This document shows positions 6,150 to 36,180 of a stretch of DNA of 36,459 nucleotides, piece after piece. Numbering within the stretch: position 1 is the first letter of the stretch; each line of letters opens with the position of its first letter. The notes beneath the pieces are model-generated. The model did not search any database, had not been told where the DNA came from, and was given only the letters and a program-made list of their open reading frames with translations. The stretch lies in assembly GCA_964403345.1 (NCBI GenBank), contig CAYOGU010000002.1, forward strand, positions 1-36,459, read 5' to 3'. The position numbers and the translations under genes were made by a program. This DNA comes from an uncultured Syntrophus sp. Lineage in GTDB: Bacteria > Desulfobacterota > Syntrophia > Syntrophales > UBA5619.

Positions 6150-6203
6150 TTCACGGAAGCTTCACGGGGTTGTCATCGAATTGTAACAATCCTCCTCTAT
6201 GCT
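6150..6203 (+). promoter_or_regulatory. Putative Pho box (4 phased PhoB half-sites) plus -10, pstS promoter
   Basis: TTCAC 6150, TTCAC 6161, GTCAT 6172 and GTAAC 6183 are spaced exactly 11 bp apart. Ten nt later comes TATGCT (6198-6203). The site is 21 nt upstream of the pstS ATG region and its RBS GGAGAGG. Confidence 0.7.
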
Positions 6204-7045: not shown

Positions 7046-7176
7046 CAGGCTGGAGATCATCGGAGTGCCGGTGGGATCGATGCCCTGCCTGGGTCCTTTC
7101 CGGGGTGTCGTGTTGGAAGCTTTTGCGTGGGCGGGATCGTCAAGGCCCGTCTTGTTTTGATACGGAAGAGGGGTTT

Positions 7177-8085: not shown

Positions 8086-8963
8086 GCGCCTATAAACCAG
8101 TATCGTCCATGCAATGGCGTTATTTCAGACAGGGCCTCTTCTTCGGCGCGGTGCGGCTGGCAGCCTTCATTGTTACGGTGGCCCTCCTGGGCATCATCGC
8201 CTTTCTCCTGGTCAACGGGATCGGGGCCATCAGCTGGGGATTTCTTACGGAACCTCCATTGGATTCCATGACCAAAGGCGGGATCATGCCGGCCATCGTC
8301 GGGACCTTCTACCTGACCATCGGGGCGATCCTCGTTGCCCTCCCCCTGGGGGTGGCCTCGGCGATCTATCTGACGGAATATGCGAGGCAGGGGCTCTTCA
8401 TCCGGATCATCCGGATCGGCGTCAACTGCTTGGCCGGCGTCCCTTCCGTCGTCTTCGGCCTCTTCGGTCTTGGTTTTTTCGTCGTCTTCCTGAAATTCGG
8501 TTCCAGCATTCTTTCCGGCGCCTTGACTCTGGGGATTCTAATCCTCCCCACGATCATCGGGGCCGCGGAGGAGGCCCTCAAGGCCGTTCCCCAGACTTTC
8601 CGTGAGGCTTCTCTGGCCCTGGGCGTCTCCAAATGGCGAACCATATCCCGGGTTGTCCTCCCCTCGGCCCTGCCGGGGATCCTGACCGGGTCGATCCTGG
8701 GGATCGGACGCGCCGCCGGGGAGACGGCTCCCATCATGTTCACGGCGGCTGCCTTTTTCACAGCCGTTCTGCCGAAATCGGTCTTTGACGAGGTGATGGC
8801 TTTGCCCTATCATATCTATGTCCTGGCCACAGCGGGGACCCATATCGAGCAGACCCGCCCCCTGCAGTACGGAACGGCCCTGGTCCTGATCGTCCTGGTC
8901 CTGGGGATCGATCTGGTCGCCATCGTCCTGCGCGGCATGGCCCGGAAGAGGAAAAGGTGGTAG
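8082..8963 (+). CDS. pstA: Phosphate ABC transporter permease PstA
   Basis: It is a multi-TM permease carrying [26 protein letters not shown]. It is translationally coupled on both sides. Confidence 0.9.
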
Positions 8964-9727
8964 ATGTGGAAAAAGAGATGATCATCACGACTAAGAATGT
9001 GGATTTCTATTACGGTGCCTTCAGGGCCCTGACTGATGTGACGCTGGATTTTGAAAAGAACCGCGTCACCGCTTTGATCGGGCCGTCGGGTTGCGGCAAA
9101 TCAACACTCCTTCGGCTCCTCAACCGGATGAACGATCTCATCGACGGGACGCGGGTGGAGGGGGAGATCCTGTTCGAGGGGAAGAACATCTATGCCCCCG
9201 ACGTGGACCCCGTGGGGATCCGCCAGCGGATCGGGATGGTCTTCCAGAAGCCCAACCCCTTTCCAAAATCGATCTTCAACAATATCACCTTTGCCCCGAG
9301 ACTTTCCGGTGTCAGGAACAACGGCGATCTGGCGAACCTCGTGGAGGAGAGCCTCAAACAGGCGGTCCTGTGGGACGAGGTGAAAGACATCCTGGGAAAA
9401 TCTGCCATGACCCTCTCCGGCGGACAGCAGCAGCGCCTCTGCATCGCCAGGGCGCTGGCCATGAAGCCCGACGTCCTTTTGATGGACGAGCCGACCTCGG
9501 CGCTCGATCCAATCTCCACGGCGAAAATCGAAGAGCTCATCGACGAACTCAAGAGACGCTATACGATCATCATCGTGACGCACAACATGCAGCAGGCGGC
9601 TCGCGTATCGGAATACACCGGTTTTTTCTACCTGGGTAAGTTGATCGAATTCAACGCTACGGAAAAGATCTTCACCAACCCCGATGTGAAGCAGACTGAG
9701 GATTACATCACTGGTCGGTTCGGTTAG
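8957..9727 (+). CDS. pstB: Phosphate ABC transporter ATP-binding protein PstB
   Basis: Walker A is GPSGCGKST, the ABC signature is LSGGQQQRL, and Walker B is [11 protein letters not shown]. The PstB-type N-terminus reads NVDFYYG. The start is either GTG 8957 (overlapping the pstA stop) or ATG 8978. Confidence 0.92.
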
Positions 9728-9750
9728 GCGTCAGAGCCGAGGGAGGAACC

Positions 9751-10443
9751 ATGGAAGAAGCCAAGCGACATACCAGCGCGGAATACGAGCGTGAGCTCCA
9801 AGAGATACGGGACGGCCTGCTCTACATGGGGGCTCTGACGGAAAAGGCTTTGGAAAAAGGAATCACGGCGCTCGTGGAGAGAGACTCCGCACTGGCCAAA
9901 CAGGTCATCTGCGAAGACGACCAGGTCGACCGTCTCGATTTCGACTTGGAGGAGAAGTGCATTCGCCTTCTGGCTCTCCGCCAGCCCGCCGCCCGGGACC
10001 TGCGGTTCATCACGACATCGATCAAGATCACCGGCCATCTGGAGCGGATCGGCGACATGGCGGCCAACATCGCCGAGAAGGTCCTCATCCTCAACGAGAT
10101 TCCCCAGATCAAGGCCTACATCGATCTGCCGCGGATGGACCAGATCGTCCGGGGGATGATCCGCAGAAGCCTCGACGCTATGGTGAGCGAGGATGTGGAA
10201 CTGGCCCATCGGGTTCGGGAGGAGGATGTCATCATTGATCGGCTTAACGAGCAGATCTTCAGGGAACTGCTCACATTCATGATGGAAGATCCCCATAAGA
10301 TTCAGGTTTGCCTCTACATCATGCAGATCTCCAAGAGTCTCGAACGGATTGCCGATCACGCCGAGGGGATCGCAGACATGGTGATTTACATGATCACGGG
10401 AAAGAGCGTACGACACCAGCCGACTTGCGGACCGAAGGGATGA
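9751..10443 (+). CDS. phoU: Phosphate signalling complex protein PhoU
   Basis: It has two PhoU repeats with the motifs LERIGDMAANIAE and LERIADHAEGIAD. The RBS is GAGGGAGG. Its stop overlaps the phoR ATG (ATGA at 10440-10443). Confidence 0.92.
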   Translation: MEEAKRHTSAEYERELQEIRDGLLYMGALTEKALEKGITALVERDSALAKQVICEDDQVDRLDFDLEEKCIRLLALRQPAARDLRFITTSIKITGHLERIGDMAANIAEKVLILNEIPQIKAYIDLPRMDQIVRGMIRRSLDAMVSEDVELAHRVREEDVIIDRLNEQIFRELLTFMMEDPHKIQVCLYIMQISKSLERIADHAEGIADMVIYMITGKSVRHQPTCGPKG

Positions 10444-12197
10444 AGAGAAGACTCTCCTTCAAGTTCTTTGTCGTCTTCCTTACGATTGGGGGGACTGCGG
10501 CGCTGATCGCCGGGTTCCTGATCGACCGGGAGCTCAAGGGCGTCCTCATGCGCTGGAGCGAGGAAGAGATGGCGGCCGAAGCGCGTCTGATTGCCTTGAT
10601 TCCCCCGAATCAAGTGTCGGCGCGGATTGTGGAATTTTCAGAAAGTGCCGGCGCCAGGATAACCTTGCTTGACGCCGCCGGCCGGGTCCAGGCCGATTCC
10701 AACCCCGCCGCAATCGAGCCGGGGAACCATCTCTACCGGACGGAAGTCCAGGAAGCCCGCCTGAGGGGGGAGGGATCGGCGGTCCGTTACAGCCGGACCC
10801 TGTCGATCGAACTCCAGTATGTGGCCCTTGCCCTGACAGAGGGGGGGGAGATAAAAAGGTACATCCGCTTGGCTCGTCCCGTTCAGGATGTGGTCCGTTC
10901 CATGGAATCCTTCCGGCGGATTTTTCTGTGGGTGCTCGTTCCGGTCCTGTTCATTCCGCTCTTGCTCTGCCTGATCTACAGCATCCGAACGATTTCGCCC
11001 ATCGGGAAGCTGGTGGCCTTCACCGAAAAGGTACAAGTCGGACAGATTTCCGGGATGGTCAGGATTCCTTCCCGGGACGAGATCGGCGTCCTGGCCGCCA
11101 ACATCAACGGGATGGTCGAGGTCCTGCAGGAGAAGATCCACGCCGCTGATGGGGAAAAAAGAAAACTTCAGTCCCTCTTTACCGGTATGGTTGAAGGGAT
11201 CGTCGTCCTCGATGCCGGCGGACGGATCGAGACCCTCAACCGGGGAATGGAGGAGACGATCGGCCGGTCCCAGGGGGAACTCGTCGGCAGGACGCCCCTG
11301 GAGGCCTTCCGGAATATCGCACTCCAAGATGCCTTGGAGCGTTTCCGGCATTCGGGGACTCCAATTTTTCGCGAGATCACCATGGGGGATGAAAACCCGG
11401 TCGTGATGGACGTGACGCTTTCCGCCATCCGGGGGGAAGCCGGCGGAGAGGAGAAGACCCTGTTGGTCTTCCACGACGTGACGCGCCTGAAGAAACTCGA
11501 GCGCGTCCGCACAGACTTCGTGGCCAACGTCACCCACGAGATCCGGACTCCCCTGACGGCGATTATCGGTTTTGTGGAGACCCTCGAGCAAGGGGCTCTT
11601 GTGGACCGGGAGAAGACCTATAAGTTCCTGGCGACAATCCGCGAAAACGCCGAGCGGCTCAATCGCCTTGTGAACGACCTTCTGACCCTCTCCGGGATTG
11701 AGTTGGGCGAGGAAAATCTCCGTCTCGAACGGCTTTCCCTGGAAGGGGCCCTGGATGATGTCCTGGCCCTTGTGACCGCCCGGGTTATTGAGAAGAATCT
11801 GAAGCTCATCCGGGAGGTCCCGGAAGGACTGCCGCCCATCCGGGCCGACCGGGACCGGCTGACCCAGATCCTGCTCAACGTCCTGGACAACGCCGTCAAG
11901 TTTACACCGGCCGGCGGGTCTATCGCTGTCACGGCTGAACCCGGTGATGAGAGGACCCTGATCGTCCGGATCGCCGACACGGGTGTGGGCATCCCCAAGG
12001 GGGAGATCCCTCGGCTGGGCGAGCGGTTTTATCGGGCGGACAAGACGCGTTCACGGGAAATGGGGGGCACGGGCCTGGGGCTTTCGATCGTCAAACACCT
12101 GATGAAGGCCCATGGGGGACGGATGGCCATCGAGAGCACCCTGGGCCACGGCACCACGGTCTCGCTCCATTTTCCCCTCTATGAGGAGTCGACATGA
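10440..12197 (+). CDS. phoR: Phosphate-regulon sensor histidine kinase PhoR-like (TM - HAMP - PAS - HisKA - HATPase)
   Basis: Track ORF is 10308..12197. ATG 10440 gives MKRRLSFKFFVVFLTIGG (TM). The H-box is FVANVTHEIRTPLTAI. The N/G boxes are LLNVLDNAVKF and GGTGLGLSIVKHL. Its position between phoU and phoB supports the call. Confidence 0.88.
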   Translation: MKRRLSFKFFVVFLTIGGTAALIAGFLIDRELKGVLMRWSEEEMAAEARLIALIPPNQVSARIVEFSESAGARITLLDAAGRVQADSNPAAIEPGNHLYRTEVQEARLRGEGSAVRYSRTLSIELQYVALALTEGGEIKRYIRLARPVQDVVRSMESFRRIFLWVLVPVLFIPLLLCLIYSIRTISPIGKLVAFTEKVQVGQISGMVRIPSRDEIGVLAANINGMVEVLQEKIHAADGEKRKLQSLFTGMVEGIVVLDAGGRIETLNRGMEETIGRSQGELVGRTPLEAFRNIALQDALERFRHSGTPIFREITMGDENPVVMDVTLSAIRGEAGGEEKTLLVFHDVTRLKKLERVRTDFVANVTHEIRTPLTAIIGFVETLEQGALVDREKTYKFLATIRENAERLNRLVNDLLTLSGIELGEENLRLERLSLEGALDDVLALVTARVIEKNLKLIREVPEGLPPIRADRDRLTQILLNVLDNAVKFTPAGGSIAVTAEPGDERTLIVRIADTGVGIPKGEIPRLGERFYRADKTRSREMGGTGLGLSIVKHLMKAHGGRMAIESTLGHGTTVSLHFPLYEEST

Positions 12198-12898
12198 TGC
12201 AGAAGAGGATCCTCGTTGCCGACGACGAGAAGGACATCGTGGAACTGGTTGCCTACAATCTCGAACGGGAAGGATTCTCCGTCCTGAAGGCCTTGAATGG
12301 CGGAAGCGCCCTGGAATCGATCCGGCGTGACAAGCCGGACCTGGTCGTCTTGGACCTGATGATGCCCGGGGTATCGGGAACAGAGGTATGCCGGATCGTC
12401 CGGGGCATCCCCGAGACGGCGAATCTGCCCATTATCATGCTGACCGCCAAGTCCGAACCTGTGGACCGGATCCTGGGACTGGAGATCGGGGCGGACGACT
12501 ACCTTACCAAGCCTTTTCATGTTCGGGAGCTGATCGCCAGGGTCCGCGCCGTCCTGAGGCGATCGGATCAGCACCCAGAGGAAAACCTCCGGGAGTCTTT
12601 CGATTTCCAGGGGCTCCACGTCGATTTGAAGGCCTACCGCGTGACCCTCGAGGGCAGGGAGGTCGAGCTCAGTTCCCGCGAGTTCAAACTACTGCAATTC
12701 TTCATTGGCCATCCCGGCCGTGTTTACAGCCGCGAACAGCTTCTCGACCGCGTCTGGGGTGACGAGGCTTTTGTGGAACCCCGGACGGTGGATGTCCACA
12801 TCAGCCGCCTAAGGGGGGCAATCGAGGCGGACCCTTCGAACCCACGGTATATCCTGACCGTCCGCGGTATCGGCTACAAGTTCGCAGACGAAGCCTGA
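12194..12898 (+). CDS. phoB: OmpR-family response regulator PhoB-like
   Basis: The receiver domain reads ILVADDEKDI...DLVVLDLMMPG...LTAK. The winged-helix output domain reads LSSREFKLLQFF...VDVHISRLR...IRGIGYKF. Its start overlaps the phoR stop. Confidence 0.9.
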   Translation: MMQKRILVADDEKDIVELVAYNLEREGFSVLKALNGGSALESIRRDKPDLVVLDLMMPGVSGTEVCRIVRGIPETANLPIIMLTAKSEPVDRILGLEIGADDYLTKPFHVRELIARVRAVLRRSDQHPEENLRESFDFQGLHVDLKAYRVTLEGREVELSSREFKLLQFFIGHPGRVYSREQLLDRVWGDEAFVEPRTVDVHISRLRGAIEADPSNPRYILTVRGIGYKFADEA

Positions 12899-12920: not shown

Positions 12921-12974
12921 GTCATCCTTTATTCACGGGGCCTTCATCAAGGGATAACAATTCCGTTCTAGGAT
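12921..12974 (+). promoter_or_regulatory. Putative Pho box plus -10, promoter of the EAL-CBS-GGDEF gene
   Basis: GTCAT 12921, TTCAC 12932, TTCAT 12943 and ATAAC 12954 are spaced exactly 11 bp apart. Ten nt later comes TAGGAT (12969-12974). Confidence 0.6.
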
Positions 12975-18514: not shown

Positions 18515-18566
18515 TCTATACGATTCCTGTGACGAGGTGATGACGTTTGGATGAATCCTCCGTGAA
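18515..18566 (-). promoter_or_regulatory. Putative Pho box plus -10 for the 813-aa gene (minus strand)
   Basis: Read on the minus strand, the pentamers are TTCAC (c18562-18566), TTCAT (c18551-18555), GTCAT (c18540-18544) and GTCAC (c18529-18533), at exact 11-bp phasing. TATAGA (c18515-18520) follows after 8 nt. Confidence 0.6.
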
Positions 18567-18692: not shown

Positions 18693-18749
18693 TTCATGAG
18701 ATCTTAACGACTCCGTCATATTCGCGTTACAGTTTGATGATTGGATAAT
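18693..18749 (+). promoter_or_regulatory. Putative Pho box plus -10 for the ATP-grasp/amphi-Trp/kinase operon
   Basis: TTCAT 18693, TTAAC 18704, GTCAT 18715 and GTTAC 18726 are spaced exactly 11 bp apart. GATAAT (18744-18749) follows after 13 nt. It lies in the AT-richer divergent intergenic region. Confidence 0.6.
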
Positions 18750-18779
18750 CAAAATTTCGGAGAAGAGGGACCGTTGTTC

Positions 18780-19922
18780 ATGCCATCAATCAGAAACCTC
18801 CAAGATGCCGTGGAGGAAATTACGGAATGGGATCTGCAGCTCTTTGACAAACTGACTACAATGGAACTTACCCCGTTGCAGATCGAACGCATCGTCTGCC
18901 CGGGGAAGATTTTCGAGACAGAAGGGTCCGTTCTGGCCATCCACTGGCACCCGGAGATGGTCGCCCTGCCGCTGGTCGAAACGAGGCTGCGGAGGGTCTA
19001 TCCTCATGCCGGTCAGACTCTGATCATCCCGACTCAGCACAATGAGATCCTCGTCTACGGTGATTACGCGGGTGCCGAGGTAGACTGCCGGGCCGATGCC
19101 TTCAATCGCAAAATTCAGATCCTGCTTCATTTCCGGTCCGAAGAGATCAAAAAGGCCCACAGCCTGAGGTCCATGATTGCCCATACCTGCCAGTATCGGC
19201 AGACGCAGTTGTTCGAGTTTCTGGAAACCTTGGCCGATCCCCGACATGAAGGGTGCCTCATGGAAGCGGCCAGGCATACGGGAACCGAGAAGGCAATGGT
19301 CCTCTTTACCGGAGTTCTGGTCGGAAAGCTCAAGAAAATGATTGAATTGAGGTCGGATTCGATTCCCGACATGGCACTGAAGAACAAGCTGGTTATCAGT
19401 TACATCAACGCCCATCGGGAGTTTTACGATTCCCTTGCAATCGACCGGTCGGTGATCTTTGCGGCCGGAGTCAAGGAGGTCGTGAAGCGGCGATTTCGTC
19501 TCGACTATTTCTATGAGGTGAACGAGATCATTGAGGAAGCCAGAGGGTTGGACGGCGGGGTCATCGTGCCCCATCCGGAGCAGTTCTGGCCCGTCCTACT
19601 GGCCGATTATGATGTGGACGGCTATGAGGTCTGGAATCCTCAATCCCGGGAGTTTACGGAATTCTTGATTCAGACGGTGATCAGGAAGAACAAGGCCGGG
19701 CAGGGAGGCAGACGCCTGCTGGTCATGATGGGGGACGATACCCATCTGAGCGAAAAAATCCTTGATCCTGAACAACAGGATCCCGACAAAGCCGCCCGTG
19801 AAATCGGCCATCAACCCCCTTGGGACGACAAGGCCGTCCGCAAGATTCTCAATATGGGGGATTTCGATAAGAGAAAAGTCATCGACGAGTACCAATCTCG
19901 CCTTGCCGGCGGAACGGTTTGA
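18780..19922 (+). CDS. Hypothetical protein with a PHP-like (metal-dependent phosphoesterase) motif series
   Basis: Track ORF is 18741..19922 (TTG). ATG 18780 follows GGAGAAGAGGGA. The ordered motifs resemble the PHP fold: AIHWHPE (HxH), IPTQHNE, IVPHPEQ, GYEVWNP, MMGDDTHL (DxH). There is a long insertion between the second and third motifs. The family call is tentative. Confidence 0.55.
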   Translation: MPSIRNLQDAVEEITEWDLQLFDKLTTMELTPLQIERIVCPGKIFETEGSVLAIHWHPEMVALPLVETRLRRVYPHAGQTLIIPTQHNEILVYGDYAGAEVDCRADAFNRKIQILLHFRSEEIKKAHSLRSMIAHTCQYRQTQLFEFLETLADPRHEGCLMEAARHTGTEKAMVLFTGVLVGKLKKMIELRSDSIPDMALKNKLVISYINAHREFYDSLAIDRSVIFAAGVKEVVKRRFRLDYFYEVNEIIEEARGLDGGVIVPHPEQFWPVLLADYDVDGYEVWNPQSREFTEFLIQTVIRKNKAGQGGRRLLVMMGDDTHLSEKILDPEQQDPDKAAREIGHQPPWDDKAVRKILNMGDFDKRKVIDEYQSRLAGGTV

Positions 19923-19933
19923 GAGGGGGCTGC

Positions 19934-20215
19934 ATGGAACAGGGCAAGGACTTTCAACACGAATCCATCGAAGACAAGGAATCCGTTGTCCGATACCTCC
20001 AAACCCTTTCCGATGGGTTCCGGAGCCAGAGGCTGGAGTTTCAGACCGGCCAGGAGGAAATCCTCCTTGAGCCGTCGGGCCTGATCCAGGTCGAGATCAA
20101 GGCCAGAAGCCGTCATCGGAAGTCGAAGCTTTCCATCAAGTTTGTCTGGAAGGATCAACGGCAAGCCGAAGGCAAGCCGAAGCGGGTCCTGGCCATCCGG
20201 ACCAATCAGGGATGA
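19934..20215 (+). CDS. Small amphi-Trp-domain-like protein (paralog 1)
   Basis: ATG 19934 follows GAGAGGGGG. The pattern shared with the 25098 and 25658 products is: helix (VVRYLQTLSDGFRSQRL), then ILLEPSGLIQVEIKA, then KSKLSIKFVWKD with the near-terminal Trp. Its stop overlaps the next ATG. Confidence 0.7.
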   Translation: MEQGKDFQHESIEDKESVVRYLQTLSDGFRSQRLEFQTGQEEILLEPSGLIQVEIKARSRHRKSKLSIKFVWKDQRQAEGKPKRVLAIRTNQG

Positions 20216-21849
20216 GTCCGATGTTCGTCTTCAAGGGCCTCAATGAAAACTTCATGTTTCTCGTTGTGCGGATCCGGCGACAGTTGGAGGACACGCTCGG
20301 TGTCCTGGAATTCGGTGAGAAGACCCTTCCGGACCGCATGAGGACCCGCGAGGACTATATCGACAACCTCAAGATCACCATCGAACGGAAGAGCTACCGG
20401 AAGATTTTGAGGAGCCGCTCGGAAGACGACCGGGTCATCCGGATGATGGGGTCCCTCAACACGGCCGTGAGCAATCTCGAGGAAATCGGCGACTACCTGA
20501 TCAACATCGTGACCCAGGTGCAGTATTTAAGCGACCCCACCTTCATGGGTCGCTTCGACTACCAGGCTTATTTCCGATTGATTGCGGATGCTCTCGATCT
20601 GATCGTGCCCAGCCTGTTTAAGGGAATCATCAAGGACGCCCTGTCCGTCTGCCGGACGGAGATCGAGCTGGATCAGCTCTACAAGCGGGATTTCGATGCC
20701 GTCATGGCGATTCTCCGGGAGGGGCGCGATATCGGCAATGCGGTCACCGCCCTCATGATCCTCCGTTATCTGGAGCGGATCGGCGATTCGCTTCTCAACA
20801 TCGGAGAGGCCATCATTTCCGCCTATGCCGGCAGCAGGCTGAAACTCTTCGAGTACCTGGCCCTGCAGGACCATCTCCCCGCGGCCGGCGGTAACTTCAC
20901 CATCGAAGACATTCATGCCGAGACCCGTTCGGGATGCCGCGTCGAAAAGGTCATATCCGCGGATATCCCGAAAGGCGTCCAAGAAGCGATCTTCAAGGAG
21001 GGGGATCTGGGGAAGATCGAACAGGAGAAGGAAAAACTAGGGCGCTGGCAGGAGATCATGCCGGGTTTGACGCCGAAGGTCTTCGGTTTTCAGCCCCTCA
21101 ACGGCAAGGCGTTCATGCTCCTGGAGTGCATCGACGGCCTGAATTTTCAGGAGATCGTCATCAAGCAGAACGGCGTGTTGTTCCGGCAGGCCTTCGGAGA
21201 ACTGAAGAACGTCATGGATGCGGTCTGGACACGGACCAAACTTCCCGAGGCTAAACCGGCGAACTTCATGCGGCAGCTCCTGGGGAAATTACCCGAAGTC
21301 TATGAGGTCCACTCCTCCTTCTACAGGCCGACTCAGATGATCGGCAGCCTGGAACGGCCGCCCTTCGTCGACCGGCTGGAGCATGCGGCGAGGATCGAAG
21401 CGGTCCTGATGCCCCCCTTTTCCGTCTTCATCCATGGCGACTTCAACGCGGACAATATTCTCTACAACCACCGGGAAAACCGCATTTACTATATCGACCT
21501 CCATCGTTCCCACGACCTTGACTATATACAGGACGTGTCCGTCTTCATGATTTCGTATTTCCGGATGCCGTTATTCAATCCAGGCATGCGCAACTGGTTG
21601 TCGGAGGTGATCGATGAGTTCTACTGCTTCGCGAGGCATTTCTCGGAGCGGCACGGGGACGAGACCTTTGATGCCCGATTGGCTCTTGGCCTGATCCGGT
21701 CTCTGATCTCCTCCACGAGGTTTATCCTCAAGGAGGATTTTTCCAAGGACCTTTTTCTGCGTGGGATCTACCTGCTGGATCGGCTTTTGGAGCATGAGGG
21801 AAGGCCATGGGAACAGTTCCGCGTTCCCCGGGATATATGGGTTTATTGA
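20212..21849 (+). CDS. PhoU-domain / aminoglycoside-phosphotransferase-like kinase fusion protein
   Basis: The N-terminal half has two PhoU-type repeats ending LEEIGDYLINIV and LERIGDSLLNIGEAI. The C-terminal half has an APH/choline-kinase-type catalytic loop FIHGDFNADNILY and YYIDLHRS. The ATG overlaps the preceding stop (ATGA at 20212-20215). Confidence 0.8.
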   Translation: MSPMFVFKGLNENFMFLVVRIRRQLEDTLGVLEFGEKTLPDRMRTREDYIDNLKITIERKSYRKILRSRSEDDRVIRMMGSLNTAVSNLEEIGDYLINIVTQVQYLSDPTFMGRFDYQAYFRLIADALDLIVPSLFKGIIKDALSVCRTEIELDQLYKRDFDAVMAILREGRDIGNAVTALMILRYLERIGDSLLNIGEAIISAYAGSRLKLFEYLALQDHLPAAGGNFTIEDIHAETRSGCRVEKVISADIPKGVQEAIFKEGDLGKIEQEKEKLGRWQEIMPGLTPKVFGFQPLNGKAFMLLECIDGLNFQEIVIKQNGVLFRQAFGELKNVMDAVWTRTKLPEAKPANFMRQLLGKLPEVYEVHSSFYRPTQMIGSLERPPFVDRLEHAARIEAVLMPPFSVFIHGDFNADNILYNHRENRIYYIDLHRSHDLDYIQDVSVFMISYFRMPLFNPGMRNWLSEVIDEFYCFARHFSERHGDETFDARLALGLIRSLISSTRFILKEDFSKDLFLRGIYLLDRLLEHEGRPWEQFRVPRDIWVY

Positions 21850-21899
21850 TTCCGCAGGTGGAGTTTCGAGAAGCGATTCGGCGGAAAGGATGACAAGGG

Positions 21900-22781
21900 A
21901 TGGTGAAGATCGGTGTCGTCGGCATTTCCGGGAGGTGGTCCTCGGAAGAGATGACGGCGGCCGTCGAAAAGAAGACGGGCTTTCGGCTTCTTGTGGAGAT
22001 GGACCGCGTTCGCTATGAATCGCGGCGGGAGACGCTGTTCTACAAGGGGGTCGATCTGGGCACCCTCGACGGCCTGATCGTGAAGAAGATTGGGGCGCGG
22101 TTCAGTCCGGACCATCTCCAACGTCTGGAGATGCTGCGTTACCTTAGGGCGCGGGGGGTCAGGGTCTTCTCAGATCCCGCCGCCATTGCCCGCTGCCTGG
22201 ATCGTCTCAGCTGCACCCTCACCCTACGGCTCGGGGGGATTCCCATGCCGGAGATAGTCCTGACGGAACATATCGAGGCGGCCGAGGCGGCCGTCCGTCG
22301 GTTCGGACAGGCCGTCTTCAAGCCGCTTTTCACATCCAAGGCCCGAGGAATGGAGGTGATGAGGAGTGATGATCCGGAACTACGGGAAAGCATCGGTGCC
22401 TTTAGAGAACAGGGCAATTGCCTCTTGTATGTGCAGAAGAAGATCGACCTGCCGGGCCGTGACCTGGGGATCGCCTTTCTCCGGGGGCGCTATGTGGGCG
22501 CCTACGCCCGCGTCGCCCCGGCCGGGTCCTGGAACACGACGACGGTCAACGGTGGGCGCTACGAGGCCGCGAAACCCTCCCGGGACATTGTCGAACTGGC
22601 CTCCCGTGCTGCGGCGCTGTTCGGGCTCGATTTCACCTGTGTAGACGTCGTGGAAGGCCACGAAGGCCCGATGGTCTTCGAGGTCTCGGCCCTGGGCGGG
22701 TTTCGTGGACTCTGGGAGGCTCAGGGGATCAATATGGCTGAGATGATCGTGGATTCCGTCCTGGAGGCCGTTCATGAATAA
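21900..22781 (+). CDS. RimK-like ATP-grasp ligase
   Basis: The ATP-grasp layout reads AVFKPLFTSKARGMEVM, LLYVQKKIDLPGRDLGIAFL and MVFEVSALGGFRG. Confidence 0.8.
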   Translation: MVKIGVVGISGRWSSEEMTAAVEKKTGFRLLVEMDRVRYESRRETLFYKGVDLGTLDGLIVKKIGARFSPDHLQRLEMLRYLRARGVRVFSDPAAIARCLDRLSCTLTLRLGGIPMPEIVLTEHIEAAEAAVRRFGQAVFKPLFTSKARGMEVMRSDDPELRESIGAFREQGNCLLYVQKKIDLPGRDLGIAFLRGRYVGAYARVAPAGSWNTTTVNGGRYEAAKPSRDIVELASRAAALFGLDFTCVDVVEGHEGPMVFEVSALGGFRGLWEAQGINMAEMIVDSVLEAVHE

Positions 22782-23865
22782 TCCTCAGACGGTTCTGTTC
22801 CAGGATCTCTTCGACGATCTCCGGAATCGCTATCCGACCCACGAGCGGCTCTTTGTCGGGATAGGGGAGTTGATCATCCAGGTCAAGTCGAATTCGCCGG
22901 ACCTGATGGCGGAGTTGCGCCGTTACTTCAAGGAGTTCACGTGCTGGGAATCCCAAGAGGACATCCTGATCTATGCCATCGAGTCCGATGAGATGCCCTT
23001 GCCCCTGGTCCTCCGGCAGAAGGGTCCCGATCCGGGCAAGAACAGGGTCAAGGAAGAATTTGCGGACCTGGCGGGCGGAAGGATCGTCCGGAAACGCCTG
23101 ACCGGTCTCTGTTTCCTCTTCAACGGGCACGACAACATGGCGGTCGGACCCTGTCGGGCCAACAGCAATCAGATCGTCAATTTCATCAACAACCGCTTTA
23201 TCGAGCGGATGCTCCGGGGAGGGAGCCTCCTGTCCCATGCCGCTGGTGTTGCCATGGGGGACCGAGGGCTGGCGCTCGCCGGTTTCTCCGGGAGCGGCAA
23301 GTCGAGCCTCGCGCTCCACCTTCTGACACGGGGGGCCTCCTTCGTCAGCAACGACCGGTTGATGACCGCGGAGCGCTGGGGACGCCTCAGGATGTACGGC
23401 ATTCCCAAGCATCCCCGCGTCAATCCGGGGACCCTCCTGTCCGTCCCGGTGCTTCGAGAGGTGATCAGCGACGAGGATCGGCGGTTGTACGCCGATTGGG
23501 ATTCCGAGGCATTATGGCACCTGGAGCGAAAGTACGACGTGATGATCGACGAGGTCTTCGGCGAGAAGAAATTTCATTTGAGCGCCCTGATGAAGGGTCT
23601 GCTTTTGCTCAACTGGAGGAGAGACGGCGGGACCCTTTGCATTCGCCCCGTGGAAATCGACCGGCGGCGGGACCTCCTGGCTGCCTTCATCAAGCCTCCC
23701 GGTCTTTTCTTTTTTCCTGAGGAACTGGAGACGCCTCCCGATTTTTCAAGCGAACGCTACGTGGAGCAGCTCCGCAACTGTGCCGTCTTTGAGGCGACCG
23801 GAGAGATCGATTTCGACGGGGCGGCGGTTTTTTGTCTCGACTTCCTGCGGGAGGAAGGGACATGA
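22774..23865 (+). CDS. HPr-kinase-related P-loop kinase
   Basis: The P-loop and downstream motif GFSGSGKSSLALHLLTRGASFVSNDRLM mirror HprK (GxSGxGKS...GhxLvaDD). Its start overlaps the ATP-grasp stop by 8 nt. Confidence 0.75.
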   Translation: MNNPQTVLFQDLFDDLRNRYPTHERLFVGIGELIIQVKSNSPDLMAELRRYFKEFTCWESQEDILIYAIESDEMPLPLVLRQKGPDPGKNRVKEEFADLAGGRIVRKRLTGLCFLFNGHDNMAVGPCRANSNQIVNFINNRFIERMLRGGSLLSHAAGVAMGDRGLALAGFSGSGKSSLALHLLTRGASFVSNDRLMTAERWGRLRMYGIPKHPRVNPGTLLSVPVLREVISDEDRRLYADWDSEALWHLERKYDVMIDEVFGEKKFHLSALMKGLLLLNWRRDGGTLCIRPVEIDRRRDLLAAFIKPPGLFFFPEELETPPDFSSERYVEQLRNCAVFEATGEIDFDGAAVFCLDFLREEGT

Positions 23866-25079
23866 AGACCCTGCAGGAACCGGGACAGCTTCCGCAGCGG
23901 ATCGTTCTGCAACGCCGCGCCTTGCTGCCTGACAAGCTGAAGATCGCCCGTTATGAAAAGGCGCCCGAACTCGGACCGCGTCTGCTCTTCTTCAGCGGAG
24001 GCAATGCCCTCAAGCGGTTCAGCAAGACCCTGATCCGGTATACCCACAATTCCGTCCACATCATCACCCCCTTCGATTCCGGGGGCAGTTCCGCCGAGAT
24101 CCGCCGTGCCTTTCGGATGCTCTCCATCGGGGACGTGAGGAACCGCCTCATGGCCCTTGCCGATCAGTCCATCAAGGGCAACCCAGAAATCTATCGACTT
24201 TTTTCCTACCGGCTTCCTGCGGACGATCCATCAGACCGACTCCGGGAGAAGCTGCAGATGATGGCCGAAGGCCTGGATTCCCTCGTCGACGGCATCCCCG
24301 TGCCGATGCGGGCCATCGTCTGCGGCCATATCGGGGACTTCCTCCGGCTCATGCCCGGCGACTTCGATCTTCGGGGGGCGAACATCGGCAATATCATCCT
24401 GACGGCTGGCTATCTGAATCACCATCGCCACATCGAGACGGTCATCTATCTATTTTCAAAACTGGTGGAGGTCCAGGGACTGGTTCGGCCCGTCGTCACC
24501 GACGACCTCCACCTGGCGGCGAGGCTCCAAAGCGGTCAGATCCTGGTGGGACAGCATCGGATCACCGGCGATTCGTTTCTCAAGGCGAGAAGCCCCATCG
24601 ATGAGCTGTTCCTGAGCGCTTCGGCCGATCAGCCCGAGCGGGTCCAGACGGAGATTTCCTCCGAAACAGCGGCCCTGATCGACGGCGCCGAGATCATCTG
24701 TTACCCCATGGGGAGCTTCTATTCGAGTGTTCTGGCGAATCTCCTTCCGCGTGGCGTGGGCGCCGCCATTGCCGCCAACCGTTGTCCCAAAGTGTTTGTC
24801 CCCAATACGCTCCCCGACACGGAGCAGGCAGGGATGTCCCTGGGCGATGCCGTCCGGACCATGATCCGGTGTCTTCAGGGGGATCGTTCGGGAGACCCCA
24901 CCGACTACCTGGACTGGATCGTTCTGGACAGCAGGTGGGGGAGGTATCCTTTCGACCTTGATCTGGAGAGGATCCGTGAGTGGGGGATCGGGATCCTCGA
25001 AGCGACGCTGGTCTCCGAGGAAAGTTCGCCCTACGTTGATCCTGAACATCTCTGCCATGTCCTTCTGTCCCTAACATAA
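23862..25079 (+). CDS. CofD/YvcK-family (2-phospho-L-lactate-transferase-like) protein
   Basis: Track ORF is 23832..25079. ATG 23862 overlaps the preceding TGA (ATGA). Family-typical motifs are LLFFSGGNALKRF, ITPFDSGGSSAEIRR and GDVRNRL. Confidence 0.78.
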   Translation: MKTLQEPGQLPQRIVLQRRALLPDKLKIARYEKAPELGPRLLFFSGGNALKRFSKTLIRYTHNSVHIITPFDSGGSSAEIRRAFRMLSIGDVRNRLMALADQSIKGNPEIYRLFSYRLPADDPSDRLREKLQMMAEGLDSLVDGIPVPMRAIVCGHIGDFLRLMPGDFDLRGANIGNIILTAGYLNHHRHIETVIYLFSKLVEVQGLVRPVVTDDLHLAARLQSGQILVGQHRITGDSFLKARSPIDELFLSASADQPERVQTEISSETAALIDGAEIICYPMGSFYSSVLANLLPRGVGAAIAANRCPKVFVPNTLPDTEQAGMSLGDAVRTMIRCLQGDRSGDPTDYLDWIVLDSRWGRYPFDLDLERIREWGIGILEATLVSEESSPYVDPEHLCHVLLSLT

Positions 25080-25097
25080 ATCCCCAGGAGGTGCCGT

Positions 25098-25541
25098 ATG
25101 TCCGACCAATATCTGCGGGTCAGAACGGGAACGGGATTCTCTTTTGCCGTCCGCCACTTGGAGGGCTTGATCGAATGTCTCAAGCGGGGGACCATTTACC
25201 TCAATCACGAGGGGAAGTCGATTCTGCTTAAACCTCGGACGCCGATCTCCATCGAACTGGAAGCGGCAAGTAAAGCGAGCCATGGGATCTGCAAAGAGAA
25301 AATGGTCCTCAAACTCTCGTGGAAGATCCGGGAATCCTGGTCGTTAGGGGAAGAGAGCTTTTCGATTCTCCGATCAGAGCCGGCAGACTGCGTGCACTCT
25401 GACCGATGGGGATTTCTCCCTGAACCGTCTGGTGAAGTGGACGGAAACAGCCTGGATGCGGGAGCGAACGGCACGCTCAGAAATGAAACGTTTTCCGAAG
25501 CGATTAAGAAAAAAACGTGGGACATGGCACGAAACCATTGA
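25098..25541 (+). CDS. Amphi-Trp-domain-like protein with ~60-aa C-terminal extension (paralog 2)
   Basis: The RBS is AGGAGG. The domain reads AVRHLEGLIECLKRGTIYL ... ILLKPRTPISIELEA ... KMVLKLSWKI. An unrelated acidic/polar tail follows. Confidence 0.7.
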   Translation: MSDQYLRVRTGTGFSFAVRHLEGLIECLKRGTIYLNHEGKSILLKPRTPISIELEAASKASHGICKEKMVLKLSWKIRESWSLGEESFSILRSEPADCVHSDRWGFLPEPSGEVDGNSLDAGANGTLRNETFSEAIKKKTWDMARNH

Positions 25542-25657
25542 AAGCGTCCGTGCGGAAGAAGCCCCTCGAAAAATAGCGCCTCTCCAAAAGGGAGAAGGCA
25601 ATCTGGCGCTGCTTAGGTATCGCCTGTTTTTCAGCACTTCATCAGGAGGTAAACAGT

Positions 25658-25957
25658 ATGGCAAGTCAACAATTGAAGGTCAAATCGAAAGTGGCATTGG
25701 TGGAAGTGATCAAACATCTGGAACACCTGGTGACATCCCTCAAGGAAGGTCAGCTCTGCATCCGGAAAAATGACGAGGTCATCAACCTGAAACCCCAGGA
25801 TCCGGTTACTTTCGAACTGGAGGCCGAGGCCAAGCTGGAGAAGGACAATCTGCGGGAGAAACTCGTCATCGAACTGAAATGGAAAAAGGGCGAGGCTGCG
25901 CCGATGGAAGGCGACAGTTTGTCCATCAGCCATCTTGATCCGGCGTCCGAACTCTGA
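25658..25957 (+). CDS. Small amphi-Trp-domain-like protein (paralog 3)
   Basis: The RBS is AGGAGG (25644-25649). The domain reads VIKHLEHLVTSLKEGQLCI ... INLKPQDPVTFELEA ... KLVIELKWKK. Confidence 0.72.
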   Translation: MASQQLKVKSKVALVEVIKHLEHLVTSLKEGQLCIRKNDEVINLKPQDPVTFELEAEAKLEKDNLREKLVIELKWKKGEAAPMEGDSLSISHLDPASEL

Positions 25958-26027
25958 GGAACGAACGCAATCCCCTTTTCCTTCCAGGGAAGTCCGGGAA
26001 GGAAAAGGGGACAACAGGGGATAACCG

Positions 26028-26951
26028 ATGATACGGTCTTACAACATCGAAGACGATCGCCTGGTCGAATGTCTTCCGACTATTGCGCGGGTTGCTTGGT
26101 TTGCCGCCCCCGATGAGGACGAGCAGGGGGTCCTGATTCACCATCACGGGCTTGATGAGCATACCCTCCATTCCACCCTGGACCCGGACGAACAGGCCCG
26201 CATCGAGACCGAGCCGAGCCATCGGGCGGTGATCTTCAAGGTTCCCCGGAACCATGTCCCCGGAGGGGACCTGGAATTCAAGGTTACGTCCGTCGGTTTC
26301 TTCCTCTTTGCGGATCTTTTGATCGTCGTCTCTGCCGATGAACCTGCACCTTTCTCGGGGAAGCCCTTTTCCAGAATCGGCCGTCCGGAGGAGGTGATGC
26401 TGAAACTCATCAATGCCTCCATCTCTCTCTTCCGGACCCATCTGCAGATCATCGCCCGGGTTTCAGAGGACCTGTCGGAAAAGATCAGTGCCTCCATGGA
26501 GAACCGGTATCTGCTGCAGCTCTTCGACCTCGAAAAGAGTCTAGTTTACTATCTCAACGCCATGTCGTCCAACAGCGCCCTCCTGGAGAAGATGAGGCAC
26601 CTGGGTGGGCAGATGCTGCGATCTCCCGAGGACCGGGAATTCCTTGATGACATCATCATCGAGAATTACCAGTGCTTCAAGCAGGCCAGGATGTATTCCA
26701 ATATCCTCTCGTCGATGACGGCGGCTCGGGCCTCCATCGTCAGCAACAACCTGAACATTCTCATGAAGCGTCTGAACATCGTCACGATCGGCATCATGAT
26801 CCCCACGCTCGTGGTCAGCACCTTCTCCATGAACGTGGCGATCCCCCTGCAGAAAAACGAGTACGCCTTCTGGATCATCCTCGGTCTCTCGGTGATCTCC
26901 CTGATCGGCGTGCTGGGGGTTTGGAGATACTTCAGGAGGGATCCGCTCTGA
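26028..26951 (+). CDS. CorA-family divalent-cation channel homolog with SMN instead of GMN
   Basis: The CorA topology is present: a soluble N-domain, then two C-terminal TM helices (IVTIGIMIPTLVVSTF / FWIILGLSVISLIGVLGVW). The signature position reads FSMNVAIPL, where CorA has YGMNF. Confidence 0.7.
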   Translation: MIRSYNIEDDRLVECLPTIARVAWFAAPDEDEQGVLIHHHGLDEHTLHSTLDPDEQARIETEPSHRAVIFKVPRNHVPGGDLEFKVTSVGFFLFADLLIVVSADEPAPFSGKPFSRIGRPEEVMLKLINASISLFRTHLQIIARVSEDLSEKISASMENRYLLQLFDLEKSLVYYLNAMSSNSALLEKMRHLGGQMLRSPEDREFLDDIIIENYQCFKQARMYSNILSSMTAARASIVSNNLNILMKRLNIVTIGIMIPTLVVSTFSMNVAIPLQKNEYAFWIILGLSVISLIGVLGVWRYFRRDPL

Positions 26952-27018: not shown

Positions 27019-27670
27019 ATGAAATTAGGGACTGATCGATGCTGTCTCCCTGGAGGAGACAGCATCGCATGATCTACGTCGGATCTCCTGGAAAGATGAG
27101 AGGCTTCCCGCGAGCCATGGACAGGCGCTCCCTGATATTCGATGAGGTCGGGCCGATCATCGTCACCCACAGCTACTGGGACCACATCGGTTCGGCCAGC
27201 GTCATCAGGGACCTCACCGGAACCAAAGAGGCTCTGCACCGCGAAGAGAAGGCATGGTTGGAGAAATTACTGAAGCGCTCAGAGCCGGAGGTGACGACCC
27301 GGGGGACTCTTCTGGCGGGCGTTATGGGGCCTTTCTTCCTTGGATAGATCCTCGCGGCCAAGGTCGATGTCATCTTCGGGAACCGGGTCTTTTCGCTCAT
27401 TGATTATGGAATTCCCTGGAGCGTCCTTCCCACGCCTGGCCATCCCAAGGGTTCCGTCAGCGTGCTCCTGGAAACCTGGGAGGCCTTTGTAGATGACCTT
27501 GCGATAAACGCCTGACCTCTGTGCCCGGGTCCAAGCCTTCACGCCTTTGCCAAAGATGTCCACCAGGCTCGGGAGAGTTGGGCATTGCTCCCGCATGCCG
27601 GTACCAAGACGGTCTATCCGTCCCAAGGAAACCCTTCCCGGCCGTGGCGATCCGCAAGGCCCTGTGCTGA
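27019..27670 (+). pseudogene. Decayed MBL-fold metallo-hydrolase
   Basis: Homology is recognisable across three reading segments: MKLGTDRCCLPGGDS / IYVGSPG...IIVTHSYWDHIGS...LPTPGHPKGSVSVLL...FVDDLAINA...FAKDV...KTVYPSQG / PFPAVAIRKALC*. There is a frameshift near 27060, an in-frame TAG at 27345-27347, an in-frame TGA near 27511, and a second frameshift near 27625. The metal ligands are degraded (HxHxDH is now HSYWDH; the last His is now Gln). Confidence 0.7.
27037..27067. repeat. Perfect 13-bp inverted repeat with 5-nt loop
   Basis: CGATGCTGTCTCC (27037-27049), CTGGA, GGAGACAGCATCG (27055-27067). It lies 86 nt after the CorA-like stop and at the first frameshift of the MBL pseudogene. No T-tract follows. 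Confidence 0.5.
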
Positions 27671-27728
27671 TGCGGTGGAAGCTGGAATCCCCGTGCGCAG
27701 GCCAATATCACCGCTTACTCTCTTAGCC

Positions 27729-28706
27729 ATGGGAAACACGAAACGATCCAGCATCGAAAGTGGCCCGTGTGTCCCGTATCCTTTTCGGGAATCGGTCGGA
27801 TGGCTCTGGCGGAACATCCGGGGCGTACGAAAGGCAAATCCTTCCGGCATCCAGGCGTTGCCCCGGGAAACGGTCCTGAATCCGATACAATCCCGGATTA
27901 CCCTGGGCGTCGTCGGCGACATCATGGCCATGGGCCATCAATCTCTCCACATCACGACCGATGTGCACCTCTTTTTCCAGGGATGCGACTGCCTGATCGG
28001 GAACATGGAAGGGACGGTGACCGGGACCGGTAGGCCCAGCCCCGGCGCTCAGAGACACAACCCCTCCATTCTGGATGTCTTGGCCGGACTGTTCCAGCCG
28101 GACCGCACGTTCCTGTCCGTAGCGAACAATCATGCGGGAGATTATCCGGCGACAACCTTCAAAAAGTCGATCAATCACATGCGTGATCGGGGATTCCATG
28201 TGTTCGGCCTCAGGGAAGAGCCTTTTGCCGATATCGCCGATGGCGTTCGGGTCTTCGGCGCCTCGATGTGGAGCAACCGGCCCTGCGGGGAGATCGCCTT
28301 CTTCGATGTCCTCGATGGATGCTCGGCCGGTGCGGCGGCCTTCTCCATAGTGTATCCGCATTGGGGATATGAGCTGGAGATGTTTCCACGGCCCGCGGTC
28401 GTTCGGATGGGAGAGGAGCTTCTGTCCAGGTATGATGCCATCCTGGGACATCATTCCCATGTCCCCCAGCCGATGTCCGTAGTGCGGAATGGCGTTGCGG
28501 CGAAACTCCTGGCCTTCTCCCTGGGTGATTTTTGCACCGGCCTCAGGCTAAAGAAATTCCAGTATGGCGTTGCCTGCAAAGTGGAGATCGGTCCAGGGGA
28601 AAACGGGATCTGGCGAATCGGTGCCGTTCGGTGGCGCTACACGCGTGTCTCGCCCGGTCCAGCCGGCAGCATGCAGCTCCGGTTGACATCGGCCCTTTCC
28701 CTCTGA
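27729..28706 (+). CDS. CapA/PgsA-family metallophosphoesterase-like protein
   Basis: Track ORF is 27585..28706. The upstream part is the tail of the MBL pseudogene in the same frame, so ATG 27729 is the likely start. Motifs are VVGDIM, SVANNHAGDY, YPHWGYE and GHHSHVPQ. Confidence 0.72.
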   Translation: MGNTKRSSIESGPCVPYPFRESVGWLWRNIRGVRKANPSGIQALPRETVLNPIQSRITLGVVGDIMAMGHQSLHITTDVHLFFQGCDCLIGNMEGTVTGTGRPSPGAQRHNPSILDVLAGLFQPDRTFLSVANNHAGDYPATTFKKSINHMRDRGFHVFGLREEPFADIADGVRVFGASMWSNRPCGEIAFFDVLDGCSAGAAAFSIVYPHWGYELEMFPRPAVVRMGEELLSRYDAILGHHSHVPQPMSVVRNGVAAKLLAFSLGDFCTGLRLKKFQYGVACKVEIGPGENGIWRIGAVRWRYTRVSPGPAGSMQLRLTSALSL

Positions 28707-34631: not shown

Positions 34632-34685
34632 TTTACGGAAGATTCATGGATCCGTCATCATCCTGTAACAATGATCCCCTATATT
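34632..34685 (+). promoter_or_regulatory. Putative Pho box plus -10, pstS copy-2 promoter
   Basis: TTTAC 34632, TTCAT 34643, GTCAT 34654 and GTAAC 34665 are spaced exactly 11 bp apart. Ten nt later comes TATATT (34680-34685). It is nearly superimposable on the 6150 and 33456 sites. Confidence 0.7.
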
Positions 34686-35580: not shown

Positions 35581-35614
35581 CAGAGACAGGTCTTTGAGAG
35601 GCCTGTCTCTGTTT
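35581..35614 (+). terminator. Rho-independent terminator after pstS copy 2
   Basis: CAGAGACAGG (35581-35590) pairs with CCTGTCTCTG (35602-35611), extendable by a G-U and a G-C pair. TTTGG follows. Confidence 0.6.
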
Positions 35615-35645
35615 GGCGGGTCCATTTTCGGTCCGGAGCGTAGTG

Positions 35646-36005
35646 GTGGGAAAGCAAAAGGTTCTATTCATCTGTATCCGTAACGGCGCCCGCTCTCAAA
35701 TGGCGGAGGCCTGGCTGAATGCCCTCTACGGAGACCGGTTCGAGGCGAAAAGTGCCGGGATCGAACCCGGGGACTTGAACCCGCTGGTTGTCACGGCGAT
35801 GGACGAGGTGGGGGTCGATATCTCTCAAAACCGAGCAAAGAGCGTCAAGGATTTTCTAATGGCAGGCGAATCCTTTTCATGGATCATCACCGTCTGTGAT
35901 GAAGCGGCCGGTGAGCGTTGCCCGTTCTTCTCGGGGAATGCCAACCGCCTCCACTGGAACTTTCCCGACCCGGAGCTCCTGGCCGGCACACTGAGGAGAG
36001 GATGA
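35646..36005 (+). CDS. arsC: Arsenate reductase, LMW-PTP/thioredoxin-coupled type, with apparent 3' frameshift
   Basis: The CX5R(S) loop is [16 protein letters not shown] and the second Cys pair is [13 protein letters not shown]. The likely start is GTG 35646 behind GGAGCG (track: TTG 35613). The expected C-terminus continues in the +1 frame to TAG 36074-36076 ([23 protein letters not shown]). Confidence 0.75.
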
Positions 36006-36126: not shown

Positions 36127-36180
36127 TTCATCCAATCTTCATGGATCAGTCATCATGGCTTCACAGTTCCCTGTTAAGAT
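36127..36180 (+). promoter_or_regulatory. Putative Pho box plus -10, psd promoter
   Basis: TTCAT 36127, TTCAT 36138, GTCAT 36149 and TTCAC 36160 are spaced exactly 11 bp apart. Ten nt later comes TAAGAT (36175-36180). Confidence 0.6.

Follow-up and report, generated by a model that had tools for sequence, protein, structure and literature searches.

Genes and features of the locus

The window, a stretch of 36,459 nucleotides (nt) from an uncultured Syntrophus sp. (assembly GCA_964403345.1, contig CAYOGU010000002.1), carries an operon in which three small proteins, designated aT1, aT2, and aT3, are encoded beside two kinases, an ATP-grasp ligase, and a CofD-like protein. An earlier sequence-only reading of this DNA had regarded the three open reading frames (ORFs) as amphi-Trp-like paralogs and as candidate substrates, carriers, or stoichiometric regulators of the neighboring enzymes. 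The ORFs were present as described there and encode 93, 147, and 99 amino acids (aa). By gene content, aT1, aT2, and aT3 are the non-enzyme parts of a canonical GAK operon, in which the letter A stands for amphi-Trp. All genes of the unit lie on one strand in the order PHP-fold ORF393, aT1, PhoU-kinase, ATP-grasp ligase, HprK-related kinase B, CofD-like protein, aT2, aT3, and a CorA-like gene. The positions of these genes and of the regulatory features discussed below are summarized in Table 1.

Table 1. Genes and regulatory features of the GAK locus, in window coordinates
Feature	Position	Strand	Evidence or remark
Pho-box array	6150-6187		directly before pstS
Pho-box array	12921-12958		before EAL-GGDEF gene
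Pho-box array	18529-18566	minus	before divergent 813-aa gene
Pho-box-like array, TTCAT-N6-TTAAC-N6-GTCAT-N6-GTTAC, 11-bp phase	18693-18730	+	precedes GAK operon; GATAAT at 18743-18748
ORF393, predicted PHP-fold metal-dependent phosphoesterase	18741-19922	+	AlphaFold2, Foldseek; likely start ATG 18781
aT1, class-A amphi-Trp protein, 93 aa	19934-20215	+	TIGR04354 62.1 bits, PF20068 33.8 bits
PhoU domain fused to APH/protein-kinase-like kinase	20212-21849	+	PF01895 E = 1.9e-17, PF01636 E = 9.4e-7
GAK-system ATP-grasp ligase	21900-22781	+	TIGR04356 402.5 bits, cut-off 300
HprK-related kinase B	22774-23865	+	TIGR04355 453.7 bits, cut-off 200
GAK-system CofD-like protein	23832-25079	+	TIGR04357 502.7 bits (cut-off 340), PF01933 E = 1.9e-38
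aT2, fast-evolving class-B amphi-Trp paralog, 147 aa, tail unconserved	25098-25541	+	TIGR04354 26.7 bits, BLASTP to aT3
aT3, class-B amphi-Trp protein, 99 aa	25658-25957	+	TIGR04354 44.4 bits, PF20068 41.6 bits
Stem-loop, 15-bp perfect stem, no U-tract, directly 3' of aT3	25971-26011	+	-32 kcal/mol, z = -4.3
CorA-like channel gene, end of unit	26028-26951	+	PF01544 E = 2.4e-31
Pho-box array	34632-34669		before second PstS-like gene
Pho-box array	36127-36164		

Identity of aT1, aT2, and aT3

The amphi-Trp assignment was evaluated with two hidden Markov models, NCBIfam TIGR04354 (cut-off of 31 bits) and Pfam PF20068 (cut-off of 27 bits). Both aT1 and aT3 scored above the two cut-offs, and aT2 alone fell under that of TIGR04354 (E = 5e-6) and gave no match to PF20068. 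The family membership proposed from the letters alone was therefore confirmed by the profile, with aT2 as its weakest member. In BLASTP comparisons, aT2 aligned with aT3 (E = 5e-20, 34% identity) and with aT1 (E = 9e-6), and no alignment was obtained between aT1 and aT3. Because the latter two could not be aligned directly, the homology of the set is carried by the profile together with aT2 as a bridge. When the whole 3.7-Mb assembly was searched, the amphi-Trp domains found were exactly aT1, aT2, and aT3. The identity and classification of the three proteins were considered close to certain.

The sequence details quoted for the three proteins could also be recovered. The motifs SIKFVWKD, LKLSWKI, and IELKWKK were found, as were the ribosome-binding sites, namely, GAGAGGGGG at 19921-19929, AGGAGG at 25086-25091, and AGGAGG at 25644-25649. 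Moreover, aT1 bears the motif F7-x-H-E-S11-x-E-D14 and Trp72, which mark class A as described below, and aT3 bears the class-B motif L-S-I-S-x-x-x-P after Trp75. The C-terminal ends of aT1, aT2, and aT3 are ...TNQG, ...MARNH, and ...ASEL, respectively. Two further domains were considered and rejected. A weak Pfam match of aT3 to CBM32 (21 bits, under the cut-off) was treated as chance, and an XXXCH domain in the aT2 tail gave no TIGR04358 match at E <= 10.

Enzymes of the operon

The ATP-grasp ligase, kinase B, and CofD-like protein were each recognized by the corresponding GAK model. For the ATP-grasp ligase, the next-best models, MptN (154.9 bits), the RimK family (107.6 bits), and LysX (100.6 bits), all remained under their own cut-offs. 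Kinase B has an intact P-loop in the window, and the sequence of this loop, GFSGxGKS, does not vary among 12 homologues. The gene for the PhoU-kinase, which was found in 76 of 80 related loci, overlaps the stop codon of aT1 by its start (ATGA at 20212-20215).

ORF393 matched no Pfam or NCBIfam family. Its AlphaFold2 model (predicted local distance difference test, pLDDT, 92) contained a PHP fold with an inserted helical domain, and Foldseek returned the PHP-type metal-dependent phosphoesterases 3e0f (E = 6.7e-5) and RNase AM 9etk (E = 2e-4), each with a probability of 1.0, and no other significant structures. The motifs HxHPE, PHPE, and GDDTH are invariant, and the gene was present in 65 of the 80 loci. 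Searching the PDB by sequence gave nothing significant for aT1 or for ORF393, the latter used both as a single sequence and as a profile. The start of ORF393 is likely ATG 18781 rather than TTG 18741, because the Pho box and the GATAAT -10 element overlap the TTG start.

Compared with the GAK entries of NCBIfam (TIGR04354 to TIGR04358) and Pfam (PF20068), the operon has four of the five NCBIfam models above their cut-offs and the canonical order. It differs by the absence of the XXXCH-domain protein (TIGR04358 had no match in the window, and nowhere in the assembly did a score exceed 14 bits), by a duplicated class-B gene, and by the appended CorA-like gene. In addition, none of the GAK models represents the PHP-fold esterase or the PhoU-kinase, which are likewise universal parts of the system. 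The literature was also searched, and no experimental study of the GAK system was found; amphi-Trp appeared only in one proteomics table, and the sole other find was an unrelated mention of a CofD-like protein. PADLOC defense models gave no match for the eight core proteins, and the sole match was a weak one to the CorA-like protein.

Comparison with other GAK loci

The comparison covered 100 fetched neighborhoods, 80 related loci from many phyla, 51 complete loci, and a sample of 401 genomes of the phylum. HprK-related kinase B scored above its cut-off in 26 of the 401 genomes, including that of the window, and all of the other 25 carry amphi-Trp genes, mostly in two to four copies. In a pattern scan, relatives were encoded in 434 genomes, spanning Desulfobacterota, Zixibacteria, Ignavibacteria, Spirochaetia, Nitrospinota, SAR324, Phycisphaerae, and others. 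The strongly conserved order was an amphi-Trp-XXXCH gene (in part of the loci), ORF393, an amphi-Trp gene of about 90 aa, PhoU-kinase, ATP-grasp, kinase B, CofD-like, and an amphi-Trp gene of 100-200 aa. Two to four amphi-Trp genes were found in 46 of the 51 complete loci, nearly all consisting of class A plus class B and/or class C. The earlier proposal of a functional association between the small proteins and the kinases, ligase, and transferase was thus borne out.

Three classes of amphi-Trp protein could be distinguished by position and motif. Class A (n = 64) comprises proteins of about 90 aa encoded after the PHP gene and has the pre-helix motif F-x-[HYF]-E-S-h-Q-D, in which position 11 is Ser/Thr in 63 of 65 proteins, Asp14 is kept in 63 of 65, and Phe7 in 65 of 65. 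Class-A proteins often end one or two residues past a hydrophobic stretch, and the last residue is Ser in 28 of 64. Class B (n = 53) is encoded after CofD, is without the class-A motif, and has h-x-I-[ST]-[ST]-x-x-P after the Trp; a Ser/Thr follows the conserved Ile in 75%, and the Pro is present in 42 of 55. The class-B tails are highly variable, being acidic in some lineages, rich in Lys/Ala/Pro in others, or short. Class C (n = 37) combines amphi-Trp with the XXXCH domain and ends in ...KK[AT]CHxx[YF]K. The XXXCH protein was absent from 22 of the 51 complete loci and is consequently not obligatory.

In this classification, aT1 belongs to class A as the ortholog of its universal member, and the pair of aT2 and aT3 is a lineage-specific tandem duplication of class B. 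In the class-B tree, this duplication was placed in a small clade formed by the window and loci L056 and L064, with aT2 on a long branch. Three paralogs per operon are, on this comparison, the norm of GAK, and only the A + B + B composition seen here is a minor variant. Class-B duplications were also observed in other lineages (L063, 11178-11933; L095, 11110-12183; L131; L103), with two near-identical N-domains in L063 and three tandem class-B genes in L095. Since the duplications in several lineages are independent, changes in class-B copy number are recurrent. No charge complementarity was seen between the class-A and class-B domains that would hint at a heterodimer, and loss of the class-A Ser/Gln/Asp motif followed no pattern of locus architecture.

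The spacing of the genes also differed between the classes. The gap from the class-A stop to the PhoU-kinase start had an estimated median of -4 nt over 64 loci, similar to the ATP-grasp/kinase B junction, which points to translational coupling of class A to the PhoU-kinase gene. Genes of class B have a separate spacer (median, 46 nt). The fixed position of each class and the predicted coupling of class A give some support to the earlier suggestion that the small proteins are stoichiometric partners of individual enzymes. They also favor an explanation by which the amphi-Trp proteins would work non-covalently, as adaptors, regulators, or scaffolds, class A acting with the PhoU-kinase, class B with the CofD-like protein or kinase B, and class C with the PHP enzyme, while the enzymes make or turn over a phosphorylated, glutamylated small molecule in the manner of F420 or methanopterin tailoring. 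However, classes B and C are individually dispensable, since complete loci have A + B, A + C, or A + B + C, and class B persists where CofD is absent, which is awkward for strict one-to-one enzyme partners. The adaptor explanation was considered possible, though on balance doubtful.

Selection on the domains and the aT2 tail

Selection was estimated as the ratio of nonsynonymous to synonymous substitution rates (dN/dS) against L056, a metagenome-assembled genome (MAG) of the Deltaproteobacteria that is 93% identical to the window. The values were 0.15 for aT1, 0.05 for aT3, and 0.23 for the domain of aT2, and the operon enzymes gave 0.10-0.15. The amphi-Trp domain parts are thus under purifying selection, and the genes are coding. 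For the aT2 tail (residues 86-135), the ratio was 1.25. Moreover, when window positions 25500-25541 were compared with L056 positions 12740-12852, a 1-nt length difference was found in an A-rich run (at about 25506), as a result of which aT2 has 147 aa in the window and 175 aa in L056. The extra tail pointed out earlier, PADCVHSDRWGF, is therefore present in the sequence but not conserved; it evolves neutrally and does not represent a conserved motif. The difference at the C-terminus would reflect genuine drift of a tail that is dispensable or, alternatively, an assembly error in one MAG.

These results bear on the analogies that had been drawn with known carrier and precursor systems. A RiPP (peptide made on the ribosome and then post-translationally modified) system needs a leader and core together with a protease, an exporter, or a recognition element, whereas purifying selection acts here on folded domains, and genes for a peptidase, an ABC exporter, or a PqqD-like protein are absent from the operon. 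In the case of LysW-LysX and RimK-S6, the likeness consists in a small protein encoded beside an ATP-grasp enzyme of the RimK/LysX clade. In such a scheme, the C-terminal carboxylate of the amphi-Trp protein would have an amino acid or intermediate ligated to it by the ATP-grasp enzyme, and the group tethered there would be processed by the other enzymes. The place of the ligase within the RimK/LysX/MptN clade agrees with this, as do the acidic runs EDDE, EDDD, and EEDE that end some class-B proteins. However, the scheme needs a conserved acidic C-terminal acceptor, and the C-termini are unconserved in both classes (64 class-A and 53 class-B proteins). The proteins of the window end in G, H, and L, and the aT2 tail is neutral and is frameshifted in the nearest relative. 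In addition, the ligase scored far under the cut-offs of LysX (275.6 bits) and of the RimK S6 ligase (58 bits against 331), and neither a Zn-ribbon nor, by Foldseek, any LysW similarity was found. The known systems, for their part, lack the two kinases, the esterase, and the CofD-like protein of GAK. Covalent carriers of this kind were considered very unlikely. Of the earlier interpretation as a whole, the family and the functional association stood, but the LysW, RimK, and RiPP analogies did not.

Fold and distribution of the amphi-Trp domain

The AlphaFold2 model of aT1, built from 112 sequences, had a pLDDT of 85.5. In the model, an amphipathic helix (residues 15-31) packs against a four-stranded antiparallel sheet (34-38, 41-45, 51-60, and 63-72), Trp72 closes strand 4, and the tail has low confidence. 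The Trp is invariant across the 112 aligned amphi-Trp sequences. The three-part template described earlier, an amphipathic helix followed by a central segment and a basic strand, agrees with this secondary structure. Foldseek detected no solved relative of the aT1 model, including none to HPr or LysW.

The basic hairpin is conserved (K58/K60/K65/K69 in class A and K59/K60/K66/K68 in class B), and several class-B tails are rich in Lys/Ala/Pro. Together with the Pho-regulon context described below and the high abundance of a stand-alone member in one proteome, these features would agree with small proteins that bind polyanions (polyphosphate, nucleic acid, or the head groups of phospholipids). 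Binding would be through the Lys-rich beta-hairpin, joined in some members of class B by histone-H1-like tails, and the GAK enzymes would regulate the proteins during phosphate stress. However, the net charge of the domain is near zero, with medians of +1 (class A) and 0 (class B), and many class-B tails are strongly acidic. Moreover, no likeness to known polyphosphate-binding or nucleic-acid-binding folds was found, and the proposal is wholly inferential. It was judged quite unlikely.

The domain also occurs outside GAK operons. A profile search of 1.8 billion representative proteins gave 2,449 clusters at E <= 1e-3, and in the top 150 of these the proteins were 86-223 aa long with the domain at the N-terminus and with no enzyme fusions. 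In the phylum sample, amphi-Trp was found in 79 of the 401 genomes, about 53 of which are without GAK and carry one stand-alone copy each. This stand-alone subfamily (loci L136-L149) has an N-terminal LFKSEE motif and a length of 68-100 aa. The stand-alone genes had no conserved neighbors; those present included metallo-beta-lactamase, DUF302, N-acetyltransferase, PTPS, TusA/DsrE, NikR, and RNase R genes. In Dissulfuribacter thermophilus, the 20 most abundant proteins include one of the amphi-Trp family (PMC13490349), and the family is therefore translated.

Probable phosphate-dependent regulation

The window carries pstS-pstC-pstA-pstB-phoU-phoR-phoB at 6224-12898, PhoH2 at 28873, and a second PstS-like gene at 34715, and it is accordingly a putative phosphate-regulon island. 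A pattern of four KTMAY pentamers, each followed by N6 in an 11-bp phase and with at most one mismatch, was matched six times in the window and not at all in 100 shuffles. The array is probably the Pho box of the organism, because two copies precede PstS-type genes. On this basis, at least five transcription units of the window are candidate Pho-regulon members. An ORF resembling low-molecular-weight phosphotyrosine phosphatase/ArsC (35613-36005) was also observed between the second PstS-like gene and the last array.

Of 65 other GAK loci, 8 have the strict pattern no more than 300 nt upstream of their first operon gene, and such first-gene sites made up 9 of all 24 pattern matches in 1.38 Mb. 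Genes of the pst type lay within 10 kb in about 10 of 80 loci. PhoB control of the GAK operon is thus well supported in silico, and the operon appears to be switched on by phosphate starvation.

Proposed function of the amphi-Trp proteins

Conservation, selection, and gene arrangement mark aT1, aT2, and aT3 as partners, predicted to be co-transcribed, of two kinases, a protein with a phosphoesterase fold, an ATP-grasp enzyme of the glutamate-ligase type, and a CofD-like protein. The reading we favor, and hold tentatively, is that amphi-Trp proteins are partners and most likely phospho-acceptors of the GAK kinases. According to this proposal, phosphate starvation would induce the operon, and the amphi-Trp proteins would be the dedicated protein partners and phospho-acceptors of HprK-related kinase B, the PhoU-kinase, or both. 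The PHP enzyme would act as the opposing phosphoesterase. As for the ATP-grasp and CofD-like enzymes, they would build further on the modification or be subject to control by it. In class A, the candidate acceptor is Ser11 of F-x-H-E-S-x-Q-D, just ahead of the helix. A further candidate site follows the fifth hydrophobic stretch, namely, the Ser/Thr of h-x-I-S-S-x-x-P in class B and a near-C-terminal Ser/Thr in class A.

The phospho-acceptor reading was based on four points. Every characterized HprK-family kinase phosphorylates Ser of a small protein or peptide, for example, Ser46 of HPr and the C-terminal Ser of lasso precursors, whose phosphate can be decorated by a second enzyme (PMC8498205). 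Kinase B has kept its P-loop, a conserved Ser/Thr outside the predicted helix and strands is retained in both class A and class B, and the system includes a gene for an opposing phosphoesterase.

HPr/HprK and the lasso clusters of paeninodin and pseudomycoidin resemble the GAK operon in that a P-loop HprK-type kinase is encoded beside a protein of about 90 aa or a peptide with a conserved Ser. In pseudomycoidin, the phosphoserine is the group that the second enzyme decorates (PMC8498205). However, amphi-Trp does not have the HPr fold, no HPr match was obtained by Foldseek, and kinase B scored only 24.6 bits on the HPr(Ser) kinase model. The GAK operon is likewise without lasso genes or a PqqD-like recognition element. 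By analogy, the HprK and lasso systems may serve as a model for how GAK works. The partner-switching modules SpoIIAA/SpoIIAB/SpoIIE and RsbV/RsbW share the logic by which a single operon encodes a small protein of one domain together with a serine kinase and the phosphatase that opposes it. In partner-switching proteins, the phospho-Ser also lies near the N-terminus of a helix. However, the folds are unrelated (STAS and amphi-Trp, GHKL and HprK/APH-type, PP2C and PHP), and GAK has no sigma factor. The likeness is one of analogy only.

Several points weigh against phospho-acceptors. The approximately 53 phylum genomes with a single stand-alone copy, no GAK, and no conserved neighbors imply that the domain has a function independent of the GAK enzymes. 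The existence of three conserved classes, each in its fixed position, is explained no worse by one partner for every enzyme than by substrates. The conserved Ser11 and Asp14 lie close to the helix N-terminus and could be structural. Furthermore, the nearest characterized relatives of the ATP-grasp ligase (MptN) and of the transferase (CofD) use small molecules, and aT1 does not end in Ser, whereas 44% of class A do.

Part of this evidence speaks for the adaptor explanation introduced above. The best characterized relatives of the ligase and the transferase, MptN and CofD/YvcK, have small-molecule substrates or ligands, the stand-alone proteins occur without any GAK enzyme, and there is no conserved terminal acceptor residue. 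However, characterized HprK-type kinases act on proteins or peptides, and the conserved genes of the operon include none for a small-molecule pathway (nucleotidyltransferases or precursor synthases, for example). Adaptors and phospho-acceptors were regarded as about equally plausible.

A more elaborate form of the phospho-acceptor reading would make amphi-Trp a previously unseen fold and the dedicated acceptor of a multi-step modification in phosphate starvation. The HprK-type kinase would phosphorylate a Ser, a phosphodiester-linked group would be transferred by the CofD-like protein, glutamate would be added by the ATP-grasp ligase, and the PHP enzyme would reverse the modification, with classes A, B, and C as distinct acceptors or readers. 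This form was considered unlikely; if true, it would amount to a new post-translational pathway in the Pho regulon of many anaerobic bacteria.

The operon of aT1, aT2, and aT3 is a member of a database-known system with minor compositional variation, and the interest lies in the system as a whole. GAK is spread over hundreds of species and has carried database labels only. The three positional classes, the candidate sites, a fold without a solved relative, and a Pho box like that of pstS are added here. If the amphi-Trp proteins are modified, they would represent a new branch of the bacterial phosphate-starvation response. If they are not modified, they would be enzyme adaptors, and the search would move to the small-molecule product.

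Other features of the operon

The stem-loop directly after aT3 has its stem kept in L056 despite substitutions. It may act as an mRNA 3' stabilizer at the amphi-Trp end or as a partial terminator or attenuator of read-through into the CorA-like gene. The CorA-like gene was found beside GAK solely in L056, L064, and L084, and it is a lineage-specific accessory. Downstream of it, an ORF of 373 aa (27585-28706) resembles PGA_cap/CapA of the metallophosphoesterase type (Pfam, E = 9e-24). This ORF also accompanies the CorA-like gene downstream of GAK in L056 and L064 and may likewise be a lineage-specific accessory of the operon.

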